Assembly (NCBI GenBank): GCA_048940645.1
Contig: JBHLOI010000033.1
Span: 1 to 22,020 of the forward strand
Direction of reading: 5' to 3'
Source of the DNA: Promethearchaeota archaeon
GTDB lineage: Archaea > Asgardarchaeota > Lokiarchaeia > Sigyniarchaeales > SOKP01
DNA: 22,020 bases
Shown here piece after piece: positions 3,493 to 15,236 of this stretch. Position numbers and translations under genes: made by a program. Position 1 is the first letter of the stretch. Each line of letters begins with the position of its first letter. Under the pieces are notes generated by a model. The model saw nothing but the letters and a program-made list of their open reading frames with translations. It made no database searches and was not told the origin of the DNA.

Positions 3493-4911
3493 ATGAAGAA
3501 AATGAATGAAAATATTGTCCCATTCAGGGGAACAGAACTTGTTAAAGCTGAGGTTAATGTAGTTTTAGAATTTGAAAAGATTCTTGGATATCAGTTTCTA
3601 ATAGTAGATGAGATTACGTGGAAAACTTTTGAACTCCGTAAACTCATAATAAAAGCTGAAAGTTATTTATATGATAAGAGCCATGAAGTTGATTTTGTTT
3701 GGCAATTAGCAATTTCAAATAATAATGTAGTTGGAATGGGTTTATATGTCAATCGCATGGCTAATCTTCCAAGCTTCATATCTGAATTTAAATCACTTAA
3801 GTATTTAGTGTTAAACGCAGGTGCTCTTGAAAATATCCCTGAGTCGATTGGAAATCTTCACTCATTGAAAGTGCTTAATTTGGGTAATAATCAAATAAAG
3901 AAACTTCCAAGCACGATCGGAAATCTTAAATCCCTGGAGATACTCGATTTAAGCCAAAATCATATAGAGGAACTTCCTGATTCTATTGGAAATTTAAATT
4001 CACTTATTACTTTAAGGTTAGGCAATAATCAAATTAAAACTATTCCCGAATCTTTTAAAAACCTTAAAACTCTTGATGAACTTCATTTAAACTCAAATTT
4101 CTTACAAAAGTTACCAGATCCTATAAAAGACTTAATATCATTAAGAACTTTGTATGTTGTTAATTCTAAACTTAAAGAGCTTCCAGATTGGATTGGAGAT
4201 CTAAACTCACTTGAGTTGCTAGTTATAACAGATAATGAATTATCATTTATCCCCGAATCGATTGGGAACCTCAATTCACTAAAAACTTTATTATTAAATA
4301 ATAATAATCTAACGAACCTCCCAGAATCAATATTAAATCTAAATTCTCTTAAACTTTTAAATATAAATGGAAATAATATTGAGAATCTCTCAAAATTCTT
4401 TGTCCCATTGAAGAGAAAGGGAGTTTCTGTTGTTACATCTGCAGAAGAAGTAAGCATCGATTGGGATTTAAACAATAGGATAAAAATTAATGAGATTCTT
4501 AAGAAAGGAAGTAGTCTCATTTTAACAAGAAACTATAATGAAGCGATGAACAATTTCGAAATTGCCACAGAACTTGCTGAAAAATTAAGCGATTTTAACC
4601 ATAAGTTACATTATAAATCAGCAATTTTAAATCTGACAGGGCGAGTGTATATATTGCAAGGGAATTATCATAAATCACTTGAAACTGCTCTGGAAATGTT
4701 AAAGTATGTGGAATTAAAAAACGATCTCCCTGGAAAAGCTATAGTGTATAATAATATAGGAAACGCTTATCATGGGATGGGTAAAAGTAAGGAAGCATTA
4801 AAATACTACAAAATGGGATTAAAAATATTGAAAACTCAAGGATTAGAAAATTCTCCTGATGCTTTAACAATAAAAAATAGTATAAATAAATTAAAAAAAA
4901 AGATAAAATAG
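3493..4911 (+). CDS. Leucine-rich repeat protein with C-terminal TPRs
   Basis: About 9 regular 23-aa LRRs (LPxSIGNLxSLxxLxLxxNxI), then TPR helices (AILNLTGRVYILQGNYHKSL; AIVYNNIGNAYHGMGKSKEALKYY). Confidence 0.92.
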   Translation: MKKMNENIVPFRGTELVKAEVNVVLEFEKILGYQFLIVDEITWKTFELRKLIIKAESYLYDKSHEVDFVWQLAISNNNVVGMGLYVNRMANLPSFISEFKSLKYLVLNAGALENIPESIGNLHSLKVLNLGNNQIKKLPSTIGNLKSLEILDLSQNHIEELPDSIGNLNSLITLRLGNNQIKTIPESFKNLKTLDELHLNSNFLQKLPDPIKDLISLRTLYVVNSKLKELPDWIGDLNSLELLVITDNELSFIPESIGNLNSLKTLLLNNNNLTNLPESILNLNSLKLLNINGNNIENLSKFFVPLKRKGVSVVTSAEEVSIDWDLNNRIKINEILKKGSSLILTRNYNEAMNNFEIATELAEKLSDFNHKLHYKSAILNLTGRVYILQGNYHKSLETALEMLKYVELKNDLPGKAIVYNNIGNAYHGMGKSKEALKYYKMGLKILKTQGLENSPDALTIKNSINKLKKKIK

Positions 4912-5006
4912 AAGCAGGCGCAAATGGTATCATCATAGGCTCTGCAATGGTTAACATAATTAAAAGAAATTTTGGTGATTTTGAAGTTCTTAACTTCCAT
5001 TTGTAG
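4908..5006 (+). pseudogene. Relic resembling the C-terminal segment of tryptophan synthase alpha (IEAGANGIIIGSAMVNII)
   Basis: Matches the TrpA phosphate-binding motif GADGxIVGSAxVxII; no start codon or upstream remainder. Confidence 0.55.
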
Positions 5007-5035
5007 GATGCCAGATTAGATCTTCATCTTGACAT

Positions 5036-5278
5036 TTACTTTAATTTATAAAATTTCTTCCCATCTTTAATTTCCATTTCAGCTAATCCCTCTCTTTTTA
5101 AATCCATTAATTTTAACTCTACATAATAGTAATCTATAGGATGTTTTACTTCTTTTATGTTAAATACAATATTATTTACACTTTGAAATTGTTTACTTAA
5201 TGAGTTTAAGACAATTTCTTTTGTAACTCTCTCTATATCATTATCTAAGTTATTTTTCTTAAGTTTCTTCATATACAA
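5036..5278 (-). CDS. Small hypothetical protein, possible winged helix
   Basis: 80-aa ORF ending LMDLKREGLAEMEIKDGKKFYKL, a helix + wing pattern. Confidence 0.55.
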   Translation of the reverse strand: MYMKKLKKNNLDNDIERVTKEIVLNSLSKQFQSVNNIVFNIKEVKHPIDYYYVELKLMDLKREGLAEMEIKDGKKFYKLK

Positions 5279-5390
5279 TACGATTTAATGAGGCTTTTAT
5301 TGTATTAAACAATTAAGCTATTTATACAAAAACGATAAGCAAAATTTCTGCTCTATCGCAGATAGGGTAAAGACTAGCAAAACCGCTAAT

Positions 5391-6703: not shown

Positions 6704-7522
6704 ATGAGAGAAGGAATTAATAGAAGTGAAAAAGTTAATAGTTGGGATGAAATTAATAATATCCTTTTTATGAAATCTTGGAATGAAGATCTTGGACGGT
6801 ATCGTTCTCCTTATGCATTTCGTGGTCTTCCGGACAAGGATTATAAACTTAAAACTAGTTTAATTAGGTTAGGTGGAAATTATATGAAACGCGAACAAGA
6901 TTTGCTTCGAAATTTTAGAAAATATGCTAGTAGAAATCTTGTCGAATACGATTCTATATGGCATTGGTTAGCTTTAGCTCAGCATCATGGATTACCTACT
7001 AGACTTCTAGATTGGACATTTTCTCCTTATGTAGCATTACATTTTGCTACAGCAAATATGGAGCATTTTGACAAGGATGGTATAATTTGGGCAGTTAATT
7101 ATGACCATTATCACCAACTACTGCCTGTTGAATCTAAACTTAAGAAAGAATTAGATGATGAAGGAGCAGCCCTTTTTACAGTTGAAATGTTAGCTAATTC
7201 CGTTAAAAATCTAAATGATCTAAAAACCATAATGGATGATACATTTGTTATTTTTTTTGAACCACCATCTATTGATGATAGAATAGTAAATCAATCAGCA
7301 TTGTTCTCACTTATTTCACGTTCTGATGTAACTCTGGATGATTTCCTTTACGATTTTCCATTATTAGAGGATGCTTGGTTTAAAGTTATTATTCCAGCAT
7401 CGTTAAAATGGGAAATTCGAGACAAACTGGACCAATCAAATATTACAGAAAGAGTTTTATTTCCTGGACTAGATGGTCTAAGTCAGTGGTTAGCAAGATA
7501 TTATAGCCCTAAAAATAAATAA
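6704..7522 (+). CDS. FRG domain protein
   Basis: AFRG motif, LAQHHGLPTRLLDWTFSPYVALHFA signature, RIVNQSALF, C-terminal ITERVLFPGLDG; AGGAGG RBS. Confidence 0.95.
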   Translation: MREGINRSEKVNSWDEINNILFMKSWNEDLGRYRSPYAFRGLPDKDYKLKTSLIRLGGNYMKREQDLLRNFRKYASRNLVEYDSIWHWLALAQHHGLPTRLLDWTFSPYVALHFATANMEHFDKDGIIWAVNYDHYHQLLPVESKLKKELDDEGAALFTVEMLANSVKNLNDLKTIMDDTFVIFFEPPSIDDRIVNQSALFSLISRSDVTLDDFLYDFPLLEDAWFKVIIPASLKWEIRDKLDQSNITERVLFPGLDGLSQWLARYYSPKNK

Positions 7523-8992: not shown

Positions 8993-9769
8993 ATGCGAGG
9001 TACTTACAAAAGCGAAGTTAATATAATAATTAGTATTTCTGGTTTCTGGAATGATATAAATCAATTAAGAAAGTTAATTGATAATTCTACTAAATGTAAG
9101 TACTGGTTAATTGAAAATCATTTATTGCATAAAGAGGGAAAGGGAAAATTTATCTTTCATTTTGAGAATTATAAACATATATTAAATAGATACAATACTC
9201 ATACAGGTCTTAATCCATTGAAAAAACATGAAGAGAATAAAAATAATCAACACCACTCAACCTTATATCTCATGAGTAAAGGAGGATCTATAGAAAATGC
9301 TAAAAAAATAATGTTAGCTGCTAATTGTATCCTTAATGTTGGTGGATATGAGATTGGGATCGTAACTGCTGGAATAATACATAGCAAAGAAACTTGGAAA
9401 AAATTTATAGAAAATGATAGATTAATGGATTTTATCTTTGCCTTCGTAGAAACCATCCAAAATGTTGAAGAAAATTTTTATTTTACATGTGGAATGCATA
9501 ATTTGGGATATCCTGATGTTGTTGTTCCAGGTTACCTAGATTATAACCAAGCAAATTACTTGGCTAAAGCTTTCGCGTATTATTTAGTAGAATATAATCC
9601 TGTCCTCCTATCTGGTGGTAAGTTCCGAATCGATGAAAATTCACCTAATATATACAGATATACTTATGAGAAATGCCACATCTACGATAATTTTGATAAA
9701 AACATCTATTGGCTATGCCATAATCCATATGGGTTATGGAGATTAACAGAATCTAATTTATGGACTTAA
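8993..9769 (+). CDS. DUF4261-like protein
   Basis: FTCGMHNLGYPDV, AFAYYLVEYNPVL and C-terminal HNPYGLWRL motifs. Confidence 0.7.
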   Translation: MRGTYKSEVNIIISISGFWNDINQLRKLIDNSTKCKYWLIENHLLHKEGKGKFIFHFENYKHILNRYNTHTGLNPLKKHEENKNNQHHSTLYLMSKGGSIENAKKIMLAANCILNVGGYEIGIVTAGIIHSKETWKKFIENDRLMDFIFAFVETIQNVEENFYFTCGMHNLGYPDVVVPGYLDYNQANYLAKAFAYYLVEYNPVLLSGGKFRIDENSPNIYRYTYEKCHIYDNFDKNIYWLCHNPYGLWRLTESNLWT

Positions 9770-10014: not shown

Positions 10015-10329
10015 TTATGATGAGCCTGAGCTTCGTGAGGACATTAAATCTATTAAGGATTCGGATGTTATTACAGAATTACATTTTGAACAAGAGTGGA
10101 ATATTAGAGGTATGGCTCCAACTCGATCTAAATATCGATCAACAAATTTTAAACTATACTTTGCCATTCTTTTTAGCATCTTTCCCCCAAATGGGACAAC
10201 CTCGGCTTGAATTTCTATGAAACTCTCGTAACTTTTTAATAGATCATTTTTAAACTGGTCATTGATAGGTGTTGGGTTTATTTCGAGTTTTAATTCGAGT
10301 TCTTCTTTACAATACGGGCATTTTGGCAA
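10015..10329 (-). CDS. Small zinc-binding protein (CPYC...CSKC with a helical insert)
   Basis: Two CxxC pairs at the termini; TTG start with a GTGA RBS. Confidence 0.75.
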   Translation of the reverse strand: MPKCPYCKEELELKLEINPTPINDQFKNDLLKSYESFIEIQAEVVPFGGKMLKRMAKYSLKFVDRYLDRVGAIPLIFHSCSKCNSVITSESLIDLMSSRSSGSS

Positions 10330-10526
10330 TTTAAATCACATTTTTATTATTTTAATTATTGAATTTCTGCAATATAGTTAAACATTCTATTTAAAGGGTA
10401 GAGCAATCTCATTAATAAGGTAATTGAAATATATAAGATTTTAGCTCATTCATTTTTTTTTCTACCTTTAAATAGTAAAAAGAATAATAATTTAATATTA
10501 AAAATTGATTAAATGCAATGAAAAAT

Positions 10527-10532
10527 AGGTGA
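10527..10532 (+). promoter_or_regulatory. Shine-Dalgarno AGGTGA for a CTG start at 10541
   Basis: Archaeal-type SD 8 nt upstream of an in-frame CTG. Confidence 0.6.
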
Positions 10533-10540
10533 AATAGCCG

Positions 10541-12334
10541 CTGGTCGGCCCAATAAAAATATTATTAGTAGGTGAAGCAGCCGTTGGTAAGACAAGTTTA
10601 GTTCAGAAATTTGTCAAAAACAAATTTGCAGCTGATTATAAGCTTACTGTAGGTGTAGATATTCTAACTAAAGATGTGGAATTCAAACCTGGAGAAATAG
10701 TTACTTTAAGCATCTGGGATATCGGTGGACAACAAAGATTTGACTTTATTCGAGAAGCTTTTTATAAAGGAGCGACTGGGGCTCTAATAGTTTTTGATTT
10801 AACAAGAGAAGCGACATACACTGAAACAAGAAAATGGCTCTCTGATATTCGTCAAAGTGCGGGTAATATTCCATTCGCTTTAATCGGAAATAAAGAAGAT
10901 TTGCTTGAAGATGTTGGTGCAGTTATAAACCGAGACGAAGCTCGCTCTTTTGCAGAAAATGAGGGAAGCATTTATATAGAAACATCTGCGAAGACAGGTG
11001 TAAATGTTGAACATGCCTTTAGGGAATTAACTCGAAGAGGAATCGGGTATCGTGGACAAATTGGAGTTTTGGACATTAAAGATCATTATATTCAGCCTGA
11101 TAGTAAATGGTCGGATCTACTAATAGATTATAAGGATCAGATCAATTCACGAGTTAGAGAAATACTAAGTTCCTCAAAAGAACAAGATTTCCGATTTTTA
11201 ATTCTAGGAAATCCAGAAGTACAAAAATTCTTAATATCGAAATTATTAAGCGTAGAGGGAGTTGTCTGGCCCCCAGAATCTATTAATATTCTTTATAACA
11301 CATCAAGTTATAAAATGAATTTATACTCTAAAGATTGGAAATTTCAAGTTTTTTTCTTAAGCGATTTGAAAAAAATAAATGAAAATAAGGATATTTTTCT
11401 TAAGGCATGCGAAAAAGCTGATGGGGTTATTGTTTTTTACGACCCAAATACCCGAGAAGGTTTTAATAATGCCGCTGATATGTGTATTAGCCTAAGAAAT
11501 ATGTTTCCAGATTTAGAAATAATTTTAACTACAGGTTCAGAAGATTTCATTGCTCCATCCAATCTAGAATTAGAAAGATATGTAGAGTTAGAAAAATTAG
11601 AAGAAAAGTATCAAATCAACAATTATGATGATTATGAATCAATTCTTTCAGAGATCTTAATCAACGTCTTAAAACGAAAAAAGAAGATAAATAAAGAGAT
11701 TAAGCTTATGAAAAGCAAATTGAAAGAATTCCAAGACCAGCTTAGCGATCAAAAAGCCGAACCAGATAAAGTTAGAATGGAAATAAAGGAATTTTTAATT
11801 TCTATGGAGAAACCAGAAGAGATAATGGAAGCCAAAACAAAGGTTTATGGAAAAATTAAATCAGAACCATACACTCCCGCTGAAGAAAATGTGATCTTTA
11901 TTAGTTATAGTCATGCAGATAAAGATCCTTGGCTTAAGCGTTTACAGATATACCTGAAACCTCTTGAAAAAGAAGGAATAATTCGCAGATGGGATGATAC
12001 GCTCATTGAGCCGGGACAAAATTGGTTTAATGAAATAAAACGTGCTTTAACTTCAGCAAAAGTTGGTATCTTTTTAGTAAGCGCAGATTTCTTAGCTTCT
12101 GATTTTATTTCAGAAGAAGAGTTGCCAGATTTACTATATGCTGCTGAAAAGCGAGGAACAAAAATTATTCCTGTGATTATAAATCCTTGTAGATTTTTAA
12201 AAACGAAAGGCTTAGCAGATTTTCAAGCAGCCAATGATCCTATAAACCCATTGGTGAATTTAACAAAGGGTGAACAAGACGCTGTTTTTGAAATGGTTGC
12301 AAATCAGGTTGAAAAAATACTTTCAAAGAAATAA
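10541..12334 (+). CDS. Rab-like small GTPase / degenerate GTPase-like domain / coiled coil / TIR fusion protein (~597 aa)
   Basis: Extending in frame upstream of 10676 gives KILLVGEAAVGKTS (G1) and YKLTVGVD (G2). These are followed by WDIGGQQRF (G3), GNKED (G4) and ETSAK (G5). C-terminal IFISYSHAD...WDD..IEPG..W..EI...LVSADFLASDFISEEELP is a TIR_2-type domain (~11891-12331). Confidence 0.9.
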   Translation: MVGPIKILLVGEAAVGKTSLVQKFVKNKFAADYKLTVGVDILTKDVEFKPGEIVTLSIWDIGGQQRFDFIREAFYKGATGALIVFDLTREATYTETRKWLSDIRQSAGNIPFALIGNKEDLLEDVGAVINRDEARSFAENEGSIYIETSAKTGVNVEHAFRELTRRGIGYRGQIGVLDIKDHYIQPDSKWSDLLIDYKDQINSRVREILSSSKEQDFRFLILGNPEVQKFLISKLLSVEGVVWPPESINILYNTSSYKMNLYSKDWKFQVFFLSDLKKINENKDIFLKACEKADGVIVFYDPNTREGFNNAADMCISLRNMFPDLEIILTTGSEDFIAPSNLELERYVELEKLEEKYQINNYDDYESILSEILINVLKRKKKINKEIKLMKSKLKEFQDQLSDQKAEPDKVRMEIKEFLISMEKPEEIMEAKTKVYGKIKSEPYTPAEENVIFISYSHADKDPWLKRLQIYLKPLEKEGIIRRWDDTLIEPGQNWFNEIKRALTSAKVGIFLVSADFLASDFISEEELPDLLYAAEKRGTKIIPVIINPCRFLKTKGLADFQAANDPINPLVNLTKGEQDAVFEMVANQVEKILSKK

Positions 12335-12354: not shown

Positions 12355-14295
12355 ATGACGCTCCCTGACAAAATAATAAAAATTATCAATAAAATTCCCA
12401 AAAAACATGAGGTCTTGAGAAAACTTATAGAAAAAAATTATCAAGTTCTGAATTTGGATGAATTGGAGGCAATTGATTTCAATAAAAAGGAAATAACAAC
12501 TGATTTTTATACAACCATCGTAACAGAAATACTATCCGCTAACTCCGAAGCTTTAGAATTACTCAAGAACTTAAGTGTTTTGAATGTGCAAATAATAACT
12601 AATATTCACCGAAAAAGTGTTGAGAAGTCGTACGATATGCATAACATTCTAGACAAATTGAATTATTTGGTGGAAACGGGATTACTCATTTATAAAAGAG
12701 AGCAGAAAGAAATCCTTGAATTTACATCCATGTATGTTCAAAATGCGATATTAATTATTTCCGACAAAAAATGCCATGAAAACGCTGTAAAATATTACGA
12801 ACAAAAAAGTAAGTATTTTAAGGAAGACTACAATAATGTAATGGAGATTTTACAACATCAATCGGAAATTGCTATCGATGAAGTGCTTGCTATCGGATTT
12901 CTTGGAGTAAATAACACATTACGAGTTGCTGGTTTTGGACTTCAAAAGCTAATTTCAATTGGAGAGAAATTGATCGGTATGGAAGATAAATATAAAGCCC
13001 CGGTTTTGGTGGCACTTGGGAACCTTTATGCCGATTTGGGAAGACGGGAGGAAGCAGAAATTGCCTATCTTGACGCCTTAAATACTTACAAAGAATTGGC
13101 AGGAACTTATTACAAGATATATTTACCTTACGTTGCAACGGTTCACAATCGTCTCGGAAAATTATACGTGGATCTCAAGAGATTTGAGGAAGCGGAAAAA
13201 ATTTATCTTGAAACGTTAAAGCTTTATAAGGAGGTAGAAAAAAGCTATAATGATATTTTCTCACCTGATGAGGAAGATATAAAATTCCAAGGAAAGTTAG
13301 ATAAACCCGACTATCAGAAAATCGAGGTGGACCTACCCATCGATTTGGACCCTGAAAAACTATGCCAGGAAGCTTTTGAGGATTATAGGGAAATAGTGAA
13401 GGAGTATCATGATGTATTTTTACCCGATATCAATTCAAGCCAGGACGAGATTGGTCATGTGTACATCGATCTGGATCTCTTGGGAGAGAAAAAAGGGGCC
13501 GTTCTTGATGAGCCGACTCTAAAAAAACTATATGCAAAAACGTGTTACGACGGACATTTAGCTGATGTGGCTACAGTATATAGCAATTTAGGCTTAACCT
13601 ACATGGAAATGGCTCAGCATGGCGATGCTGAACGGATGCATCTTGAAGCTTTAAGAATTCGAGCTAAACTCGCCGAACAATACCCCGATAAGCATCTTCC
13701 TTTGCTTGCAATCATCCAAAACGACTTAGCAACCTTATACACACATTTATTTCGGAATCAAGATGCCGAGGAGATGTACCTGGATTGCTTGAAGACCAAG
13801 AAAGAACTTTCGGAGCGAAATCCGACCTTATATTTGCTCGATTATCTTGGAACACTAAATACTGTAGGACATTTTTATTTGGGGATCTATTATTACAATA
13901 AGGCAGAAAAGATGTATCTTGAAGCTTTAAAAGGTCTCGAAAAATTAACCAAAAAAGAGCAAAAACTCTATGCTACCAAAATAGCTCTCGTACAGAATAA
14001 TGTTGGAAATGCAAACCTCTTTTTAGGAGATTATGAAAAAGCAAAACATTATATTGATAAAGCATTAATGGGTTATCCTACCAATGGTGATATTCTCTAT
14101 AATTGTGCCTGCATAGAAGCTTTAAATAACAACAATGAAAAGGCTTTAGAATTATTGGGAAAAGCAATTGAAGCTAATAAAAAATTTAAAAAATGGGCCA
14201 AAACCGATAGGTTCTTAAAAAATGTTAAGGAATTGCCAGAATTTAAAAGGCTAATTGGAGAAAAAGTGCCTATCAAGAAGAACAAAACTAGTTAA
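12355..14295 (+). CDS. TPR protein with an N-terminal winged-helix-like region
   Basis: Long TPRs (VATVHNRLGKLYVDLKRFEEAEKIY; VATVYSNLGLTYMEMAQHGDAERMH) and a terminal YNCACIEAL...AKTDRFLKNV cap. It starts 20 nt after the TIR gene. Confidence 0.9.
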   Translation: MTLPDKIIKIINKIPKKHEVLRKLIEKNYQVLNLDELEAIDFNKKEITTDFYTTIVTEILSANSEALELLKNLSVLNVQIITNIHRKSVEKSYDMHNILDKLNYLVETGLLIYKREQKEILEFTSMYVQNAILIISDKKCHENAVKYYEQKSKYFKEDYNNVMEILQHQSEIAIDEVLAIGFLGVNNTLRVAGFGLQKLISIGEKLIGMEDKYKAPVLVALGNLYADLGRREEAEIAYLDALNTYKELAGTYYKIYLPYVATVHNRLGKLYVDLKRFEEAEKIYLETLKLYKEVEKSYNDIFSPDEEDIKFQGKLDKPDYQKIEVDLPIDLDPEKLCQEAFEDYREIVKEYHDVFLPDINSSQDEIGHVYIDLDLLGEKKGAVLDEPTLKKLYAKTCYDGHLADVATVYSNLGLTYMEMAQHGDAERMHLEALRIRAKLAEQYPDKHLPLLAIIQNDLATLYTHLFRNQDAEEMYLDCLKTKKELSERNPTLYLLDYLGTLNTVGHFYLGIYYYNKAEKMYLEALKGLEKLTKKEQKLYATKIALVQNNVGNANLFLGDYEKAKHYIDKALMGYPTNGDILYNCACIEALNNNNEKALELLGKAIEANKKFKKWAKTDRFLKNVKELPEFKRLIGEKVPIKKNKTS

Positions 14296-14447: not shown

Positions 14448-15236
14448 ATGTCCAGCTCATATAAAATAAAGGTAGTAGCTGCTGGATGGGAACCAGCAAA
14501 AAAATATTTCTTTCAAAATTGTGATCGAAATCTAAATAGCTTCTTTGATGGGTGTTATATAACTGTAGGAGTTGCTATTAGAAGAATTTCTTATTCCGAC
14601 GAATTTGGAGATTGTTTATCTATGTATATTTGGGATATCAACAGTTCAGAAAGATTTCATTTTATTGTTCCCACTTTTTTTAGAGGTGCTGCTGCTTGCC
14701 TTTTATTTTATGATATATCAATTCCCCAAAGTTTTGAACAATTAAATCATTGGATACAACACATTAGAGCAAACCCTGGTTATGTTCCAATTTATATTGT
14801 TGCCTATAAATCTCAGATTAAGGAAAAAACTAATTTTGAAGAGATTAATGATTTTGTTGAAGCAAACGATATTAATGAGTTTTATCTTATGTCTATTCGA
14901 AAAGTATTTAGAGCCTCCCAAATATTTGATGATATTACTGCTCGAATATCTGAATATATCTTCTCTCACAAAGCTCAAATTCCAAAAATCTCTATTAATG
15001 ATCAGAACCTCTATAAGAAATTTATCTTAACTTTTTCAAGATGTCCAATTTGCCTTGCTAAAAACCATCAAAGCACTTTAAATAGAGTTTTTTTCTCTAA
15101 AGATACTCGTATGAAAAAATTTAAAGAAAAACTAATACAATTAATGAATTTCTCTGAAAATTTTGAAGATCATTACCTGAATAAAATTAAGATAGGAATC
15201 CCTTGTTGTTCTTGCCATAATAAGATATTTTCCTAA
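14448..15236 (+). CDS. Degenerate Rab-like GTPase (pseudoGTPase) with a C-terminal Cys4 Zn-binding domain
   Basis: YITVGV, IWDINSSERF, FFRGAAACLLFYDIS..SFEQLNHWI retain the Rab fold, but G1, G3 and G4 are degenerate. C-terminal CPIC...CCSC; G-rich RBS. Confidence 0.85.
   Translation: MSSSYKIKVVAAGWEPAKKYFFQNCDRNLNSFFDGCYITVGVAIRRISYSDEFGDCLSMYIWDINSSERFHFIVPTFFRGAAACLLFYDISIPQSFEQLNHWIQHIRANPGYVPIYIVAYKSQIKEKTNFEEINDFVEANDINEFYLMSIRKVFRASQIFDDITARISEYIFSHKAQIPKISINDQNLYKKFILTFSRCPICLAKNHQSTLNRVFFSKDTRMKKFKEKLIQLMNFSENFEDHYLNKIKIGIPCCSCHNKIFS

Follow-up and report, generated by a model that had tools for sequence, protein, structure and literature searches.

Can a small GTPase of the kind associated with eukaryotic membrane traffic serve an Asgard archaeon as the switch of an immune effector? 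The question is raised by one gene of a Promethearchaeota archaeon (GenBank assembly GCA_048940645.1, contig JBHLOI010000033.1, positions 1 to 22,020, the 22,020-nucleotide stretch here called the window), located at 10541..12334 on the + strand and encoding, in 597 codons plus stop, the protein P0001. Profile searches and predicted structures describe a rare protein that comprises (i) a Rab-like GTP switch, (ii) a dead copy of the same fold, (iii) a coiled coil, and (iv) a TIR domain. On balance, we consider it slightly probable that the gene encodes a single-chain, GTP-switched TIR effector specific to Asgard archaea and of the conflict or immunity type.

Domain architecture of the GTPase-TIR protein

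The N-terminal domain (residues 1-172; 10541..11056, + strand) is, as judged by its sequence matches, a Rab-like GTPase that is presumably active. The Pfam Ras model covers residues 6-165 with an E-value of 2e-50 and 171 bits, against 4e-31 and 108 bits for Roc; the best solved relatives are Rab11A, RabA1a, Rab14, and Ypt31/32 (~5e-37), and the Thorarchaeota Rab of PDB entry 7ezb matches the domain at 3.7e-35. The motifs G1 (residues 11-18), the switch I Thr (T36), G3 with the switch II Gln (60-64), G4 (117-120), and G5 (149-151) are intact, and none of them varies among 19-26 homologues. The original prediction for this locus had recognized five intact G motifs of Rab character, a reading borne out by the Pfam match, the invariant motif columns, and the proximity to Rab11 and Rab14, and the choice that it raised between Ras and Roc falls to the Ras model, which is far ahead. 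The prenylation Cys of Rab C-termini is not present, with 425 residues following the G domain and a protein end devoid of Cys. In the predicted model, the linker that leads to the next domain (11057..11176, + strand) is of low confidence at residues 174-187 and then forms two short helices.

The middle domain (residues 213-367; 11177..11641, + strand) is the best conserved part of the family, and its model supports the assignment as a Ras-fold pseudoGTPase and not a COR domain. The AF2 model (pLDDT 84, pTM 0.85) displays the strand-helix order of Ras, and the fold matches, all computed on this predicted model, converge on small GTPases: (i) Foldseek returns at least 500 PDB matches at E<=1e-3, the top ones all Rab, with probability 1.0 to Rab5, Rab8, and Rab11 and a TM score of ~0.7 by target; (ii) VIA, an all-against-representatives comparison, finds Rab32 (Z 14.8, rmsd 2.9 over 159 residues) followed by Rab28, Rab3C, and DiRas1, with Z ranging from 14.8 to 13 over these proteins; and (iii) the ESM Atlas search gives TM scores of 0.61/0.73 to a Promethearchaeota Ras cluster. 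At the sequence level, a middle-domain profile built from 28 sequences matches GEM, Rab8A, Rab1A, Rab3, and Rab5 weakly (E 0.0075-0.6) and in register, and hhalign places the domain in register with the family's own G domain (E 7.6e-4). These in-register alignments disclose degenerate G1, G3, and G4 motifs: in G1, Gln stands for the second Gly and Pro, Phe, or Leu for Ser/Thr; in G3, Phe replaces Asp; and in G4, Gly-Ser replaces Asn-Lys. This state is kept in 28 sequences, together with an invariant, family-specific Trp-Pro-Pro motif in the region corresponding to switch I. The domain is read as a pseudoGTPase because the Ras fold and the degenerate nucleotide motifs occur together.

Pfam gives no match between residues 170 and 445, and neither COR-A nor COR-B nor LRR is matched in the protein even at E<=5. 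Outside the family, a HMMER search of 1.84 billion representatives with the middle domain recovered 13 clusters, all of them belonging to this family, and the middle regions of the related proteins P0036 (Ras-X-TIR) and P0034 (Ras-X) are unrelated to it. A second alpha/beta domain that echoes a GTPase fold had been proposed at ~11189-11670, with COR as the alternative to a P-loop fold; the domain proves real, spans residues ~213-367, lacks the P-loop Gly-Lys-Thr, and sides with Ras in both Foldseek and VIA, so that the protein departs from Roco architecture as had been suggested.

The possible contact between the two G-fold domains was addressed by complex prediction. The G domain with GTP and Mg, paired with the pseudoGTPase, reached ipSAE values of 0.38, 0.38, and 0.35 (controls, best of three, 0.00), read against a mark that 58 of 80 solved complexes and 2 of 110 mismatched pairs attain, with only 7 of the 80 solved complexes and both mismatches attaining it at 0.60 or under, and with our own alignments and the riding ligand departing from that calibration. 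The runs share at least 69% of contacts, with a partner pLDDT of at least 83.

Beyond the pseudoGTPase, a helical Lys/Glu-rich coil (residues 368-445; 11642..11875, + strand) comprises two long helices, 368-402 and 408-433, the first of which continues the last pseudoGTPase helix, whereas residues 424-447 are of low confidence. The C-terminal TIR domain (residues 446-597; 11876..12331, + strand) is matched by Pfam TIR_2 over residues 452-562 at 3e-15 and by Pfam TIR at 5e-6; the best PADLOC match is ThsB (8e-17, TIR part only), and the nearest relatives are AbTir (4e-5), PdTIR, and BtpA. The coil followed by a TIR domain thus agrees with the original reading in its helical stretch (368-433) and its TIR_2 match alike. 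Glu527 (codon 12119..12121, + strand), located at the N-terminal end of the helix that follows the third strand, is the Glu of the FISEEELP segment that had been placed at the catalytic position, and it aligns with the conserved Glu of AbTir, PdTIR, and BtpA, which in AbTir is the catalytic residue. The family carries two TIR subtypes, A and B; Glu-Leu-Pro is retained at this position in all type-A members and a Glu is retained in type B. Judged from these residues, the TIR domain looks catalytic, as an NADase. A ThsA neighbour (SIR2/SLOG or Macro) was not found in the window and ~15 related loci, and the gene is therefore not part of a Thoeris system.

Family distribution, effector exchange, and the start of the window copy

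The family comprises ~30 full-length homologues of ~600 residues, and every named one is from Asgard archaea, including Promethearchaeota/Lokiarchaeota, Thor-, Hermod-, and Hodarchaeota. Strong matches are found in ~7 of 400 sampled Asgard genomes, namely the genome of the window, 4 of the 41 others in its genus, 1 of 54 in a sister genus, and 1 in another family, the weak matches being ordinary small GTPases. The distribution is therefore patchy and accessory-gene-like, even within one genus. The three folded domains are under purifying selection, with a ratio of non-synonymous to synonymous substitution (dN/dS) of 0.10-0.25.

At its C-terminus, the family has switched between TIR types at least three times. 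On a tree of the first 408 residues, computed with FastTree only, subtypes A and B are interleaved, and its well-supported branches force at least three changes of TIR type. The same TIR type (38% identity) also occurs in P0060 on an AAA_35 STAND-like ATPase, and related Asgard proteins display the orders TIR-Ras and Ras-X-TIR. The Hodarchaeota member P0032 carries a non-TIR C-terminus, in which residues 425-557 give a sub-threshold match to HEPN_Apea (E 0.0029), a lead and not a finding; if real, this HEPN domain would give the switch module a second type of effector. In a sister genus, two loci contain stand-alone Rab-like GTPases of ~200 residues (L021, 1423-2025, and L022, 1486-2082, both on the - strand); one of them has Glu for the second P-loop Gly, which its orthologue keeps, a change that may be an early step towards a pseudoGTPase.

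The beginning of the gene deserves separate consideration. An open frame runs on the + strand from 10538 up to the stop codon at 12332-12334, with 597 residues counted from 10541, in a window of ~30% G+C and a genome that is 89.6% complete and holds one copy of the gene. Of the span 10541-12334 given in the original prediction, the frame stands; the start does not, the codon at 10541 being the non-canonical CTG. No in-frame ATG, GTG, or TTG lies between a TAG at 10535-10537 and GTG 10676, the first canonical in-frame start after that TAG, which is located downstream of the P-loop (G1) and of switch I. Comparison with orthologues identifies the ancestral start at 10529..10537 (+ strand) as GTG (10529), AAA, and the in-frame TAG as codon 3: four orthologues (G022, G272, G019, and L007) begin GTG-AAA-CAG/CCG/AAG where the window has GTG-AAA-TAG, one base away from the CAG of the nearest relatives.

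This start originated when 43 nt at the gene's 5' end were duplicated in tandem, and a remnant of the duplication occupies 10526..10588 (+ strand). The duplicated stretch comprised the original start and the P-loop-strand region; its copies measure 37 nt in L007 (6635-6714) and survive as two 20-nt remnants in the window, where the upstream copy has suffered an additional 9-nt deletion. The duplication created the GTG start, which sits inside the upstream copy, and with it the N-terminal extension of the window's subclade, and it shifted the old ATG out of frame, where it now heads a 7-codon dead-end frame. The more distant members P0008 and P0009 begin directly before the first strand.

Two ways around the TAG were discarded: pyrrolysine insertion, PylS not being above the cut-off in this genome (best 34.5 bits vs 178), and CTG 10541 as a conserved start, because the orthologues carry ATT, ATT, TTG, and CTG at that codon. 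The public gene call begins at ATA 10559, the seventh codon of the open frame. For this copy, three accounts are considered: the TAG arose recently as a nonsense mutation, it is an error of the assembly, or translation begins at a non-canonical codon (CTG 10541, ATA 10553, or ATA 10559).

Gene neighbourhood

A second gene (12355..14295, + strand) starts 20 nt downstream and encodes a 646-residue protein with a STAND-type arm/WHD (residues 1-205) and TPRs, the NTPase domain being absent. It directly follows the GTPase-TIR gene in the window, G022, G030, G274, L007, and P0008, with a spacing of 15-20 nt where both ends are visible (window and G022); in P0008, which is 69% identical, the TPR gene is kept and the flanks differ. 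In its first 205 residues, the TPR protein is similar to the WHD/arm of STAND proteins of the MalT type, and long paralogues of the gene in the same genus display the order DUF4062-AAA_16/nSTAND6-WHD-TPR, in which DUF4062 is a TIR-like domain. Residues 3-204 of the window protein are homologous to the segment just past the NTPase in these paralogues. Judged by its sequence, the TPR gene resembles the WHD-TPR portion of a STAND protein, with the NTPase missing, and is thus sensor-like.

Orthologues of the TPR gene adjoin a TIR-domain gene in the six genomic loci with a readable neighbour, the other domains of the TIR gene being variable, and those without a GTPase-TIR neighbour (G020 and G019) still stand beside TIR genes. 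In G020 (L044, G020:C47, 2475-7667), the neighbour is a 1730-residue LRR-TIR protein with ~30 LRR units and a C-terminal TIR_2, divergently transcribed from the WHD-TPR orthologue. In G019, the TPR orthologue lies beside a pseudo-Ras and a TIR_2 protein, with a SLATT gene and a GTPase-TIR gene on the same contig. This stretch of G019 (L043, G019:C284, 1-8442) forms a dense conflict-like cluster that holds the GTPase-pseudoGTPase-TIR gene and the WHD-TPR orthologue, and also a SLATT/DUF4231 2TM protein, a zinc-ribbon protein, a 394-residue TIR_2 protein, and a 364-residue pseudo-Ras with a degenerate P-loop.

The third gene of the window (14448..15236, + strand) encodes a pseudo-Rab of 262 residues whose G1, G3, and G4 motifs are degenerate and whose C-terminus bears a four-Cys zinc ribbon. 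G030 and G274 also have this gene in third position, which makes three species, with ~70% identity and the same degenerate motifs; G022 lacks it. The protein is read as a maintained pseudoGTPase because these motifs are conserved at ~70% identity in G030 and G274. The zinc-ribbon gene of G019 was considered as a counterpart and rejected, not being a homologue of the window pseudo-Rab. Within this genus, the GTPase-TIR gene is part of a block of two to three genes that is conserved and includes a putative sensor of STAND origin.

Elsewhere in the family, the TPR sensor gene is not adjacent at 10 or more other members. Conflict-like neighbours are found at single distant loci: a 1336-aa AAA_15/21 protein and an integrase at one, a TIR-STAND protein at another, and an HD-CE/HATPase_c_3 protein, a NUDIX protein, and a VWA protein at a further one. 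Other distant members have housekeeping surroundings or lie next to other Arf/Rag-like GTPases.

Upstream of the GTPase-TIR gene, the window holds further features. A DUF4261-like gene (sub-threshold Pfam match) lies at 8993-9769, with similar genes in G022 (L015) at 4578-5387 and 11181-11909; it was rejected as a part of the module, since it accompanies the nearest relatives only and an ARPP-1 protein takes its place in P0008. A 104-codon open reading frame at 10015-10329 (- strand), divergent from the GTPase-TIR gene, encodes two Cys-x-x-Cys pairs, is zinc-ribbon-like, and has no Pfam match. A few kb upstream, a 472-residue LRR and TPR protein (3493-4911) and an FRG-domain protein (6704-7522) are encoded.

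Proposed mechanism, competing readings, and comparison with known systems

As a GTP-switched TIR effector, the protein would operate in one chain. The Rab-like G domain would cycle between GTP and GDP, and the nucleotide-dead Ras-fold domain, in cis, would be the docking partner that reads the nucleotide state, taking the place that COR holds in Roco proteins. The last pseudoGTPase helix, running into the coiled coil, would relay the signal, and the coil would position the C-terminal TIR domains for pairing and for NAD+ cleavage at Glu527. The outcome would be NAD+ depletion or a cyclic ADP-ribose (cADPR)-type signal, leading to growth arrest or abortive infection. In the subclade of the window, the infection signal would probably arrive in trans from the downstream NTPase-less WHD-TPR protein; if that protein supplies the signal, the Rab-like GTPase stands where the STAND NTPase stands in the TPR paralogues.

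The analysis establishes which domains are present, the state of their motifs, their conservation, the distribution of the family, and the gene linkage; NADase activity, its control by the bound nucleotide, the contact of the two G-fold domains, and the role in immunity are inferred. Patchy distribution, effector swapping, and gene context favour an immune effector. Several points weigh against it: the in-silico pass of the contact between G domain and pseudoGTPase is weak; no ThsA-like or other signal-receiving partner is linked; many Asgard Rab-like GTPases have non-immune roles; codon 3 of the window copy is TAG; and members beyond one subclade have only housekeeping genes around them. From these lone loci it follows that a 'defence island' context is not general and that for most members no sensor is linked.

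The loci without a linked signal receiver or sensor, which are the majority, together with the members placed among housekeeping genes or beside Arf/Rag-like GTPases, would suit a role in housekeeping or regulatory signalling, with the Rab-like switch acting in membrane or cytoskeletal organization and the TIR domain serving as a homotypic adaptor or as a regulated source of an NAD-derived second messenger; the large radiations of Rab-like GTPases in Asgard genomes, many of them within multidomain proteins, also speak for this reading (10.1101/2020.10.19.343400). We nevertheless judge it quite improbable, given the sporadic occurrence even inside one genus, the repeated exchange of the C-terminal TIR type, the retention of the predicted catalytic Glu, the presence of the same TIR type on STAND-like ATPases, and the linkage in one subclade to a STAND-derived TPR sensor gene and to other TIR genes. 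A more elaborate, and unlikely, version of the immune reading is one in which one Lokiarchaeial (Promethearchaeota) genus possesses an NLR-like two- or three-gene immune receptor with a eukaryote-type small GTPase displacing the STAND ATPase. The first gene would provide the switch (Rab-like G domain with its cis pseudoGTPase) and the TIR effector; the second, the WHD-TPR half of a DUF4062-STAND-WHD-TPR paralogue, would be the sensor; and the third, the pseudo-Rab with its zinc ribbon, would modulate the switch in trans. Engagement of the sensor would change the nucleotide state and thereby lead to TIR assembly.

Two further alternatives concern the identity of the protein and the integrity of this copy. 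An ordinary Roco protein, Roc-COR plus effector, with a COR domain too divergent to be recognized by eye, has a very slight chance of being correct: Pfam Roc does match the G domain at 4e-31, and the distant database matches include LRR-Roc-COR proteins, one with TIR (P0084), but Ras outscores Roc by 171 to 108 bits with Rab11/Rab14 as nearest solved structures, no match to LRR, COR-A, or COR-B appears even at E<=5, two independent structure searches assign a Ras fold to the domain that follows the G domain, and the VIA rows for LRRK2 and Roco2 align through their Roc G domains only and not through COR. A fresh pseudogene, in which a C-to-T change made codon 3 a TAG and no functional switch is produced, is rather unlikely, and it would bear on this copy only, being compatible with the family-level explanation. 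The contrast between GTG-AAA-TAG and the four orthologues speaks for it, as do the position of the next canonical start, GTG 10676, past G1 and switch I, and the failure to find pyrrolysyl-tRNA synthetase above the cut-off in a genome that is 89.6% complete. On the other side, the other 597 codons stay open despite 30% G+C, and this copy, compared pairwise, does not exceed the intact orthologues in dN/dS (0.14-0.24 vs 0.17). Initiation at CTG 10541 or at ATA 10553/10559, the last being the start of the public gene call, would yield a complete G domain, and initiation so near the first strand would suffice because P0008 and P0009 naturally start just before it. The TAG may also be a consensus error of the metagenome assembly.

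The principle of a GTPase switch combined with a variable effector is already known from the bacterial AP-GTPase or 'Roco' counter-invader proteins, which comprise LRRs, a Ras-like switch, COR, and variable C-terminal effectors (Kaur, Iyer, Burroughs, and Aravind 2021; PMC8195603), and a 2026 preprint of the same group restates that, in tripartite systems, the STAND NTPase can give way to an AP-GTPase (10.64898/2026.10.19.760177). The GTP-switched effector proposed here shares with them a Ras-like switch, a fixed domain next to it, variable C-terminal effectors that include TIR, a sporadic distribution, and the predicted logic of a switch that releases a lethal effector. It differs in that the switch is Rab-like and not Roc, a pseudoGTPase and a coiled coil stand for COR, no LRR or other repeat sensor is present in cis, the G domain starts at residue 5, and the family is restricted to Asgard archaea. 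A putative repeat sensor in trans is found in one subclade only, that of the window, G022, G030, G274, L007, and P0008. Compared to STAND/NLR-like proteins of the order effector-STAND NTPase-WHD-TPR, the two genes together would likewise bring an effector, an NTP switch, and a repeat sensor, the WHD-TPR half has its homologue in the downstream gene, and the same TIR type occurs on an AAA_35 ATPase; in contrast, a small GTPase with a pseudoGTPase replaces the AAA+ STAND domain, switch-effector and sensor reside on two polypeptides, and most family members have no such neighbour.

AbTir, PdTIR, BtpA/TcpB, and ThsB provide the best TIR sequence matches, with the Glu aligned and ThsB leading in PADLOC, yet these proteins are stand-alone or have a short coiled coil, and none carries a GTPase. 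Eukaryotic Rabs and stand-alone Asgard Rab-like proteins (7ezb) share 35-44% identity with the G domain, including the switch motifs and the Gln, whereas here the prenylation Cys is lacking and the G domain forms the N-terminal part of a protein of 597 residues. An active G domain accompanied by a Ras-fold domain with lost or changed nucleotide motifs is also a feature of p190RhoGAP and Miro. Both are among the VIA fold matches of the middle domain; the relationship is one of fold only, their partner domains are RhoGAP and EF hands, and neither has a TIR domain. In the literature, of which our coverage is partial, the architecture is unmentioned in Asgard defence papers (PMC11291487, PMC13700489) and in Asgard small-GTPase papers (10.1101/2024.02.28.582541, 10.1101/2020.10.19.343400), and no description of the family was found in work on Asgard TIR and GTPases, archaeal pseudoGTPases, or Ras-like GTPase-TIR proteins.

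NTP switches that release TIR effectors are a theme common to bacterial, plant, and animal immunity, the known switches being STAND ATPases and, in bacteria and animals, also Roc-COR GTPases. Here the switch is a Rab-like GTPase, and GTPases of this kind have otherwise been discussed only as precursors of membrane trafficking in eukaryotes. If the proposed reading is true, the family would offer a compact single-chain system for direct tests of GTPase control over a TIR NADase and a natural case in which a small GTPase takes over from the ATPase in an NLR-like receptor, and part of the large Asgard small-GTPase expansion would serve conflict or immunity, not trafficking.

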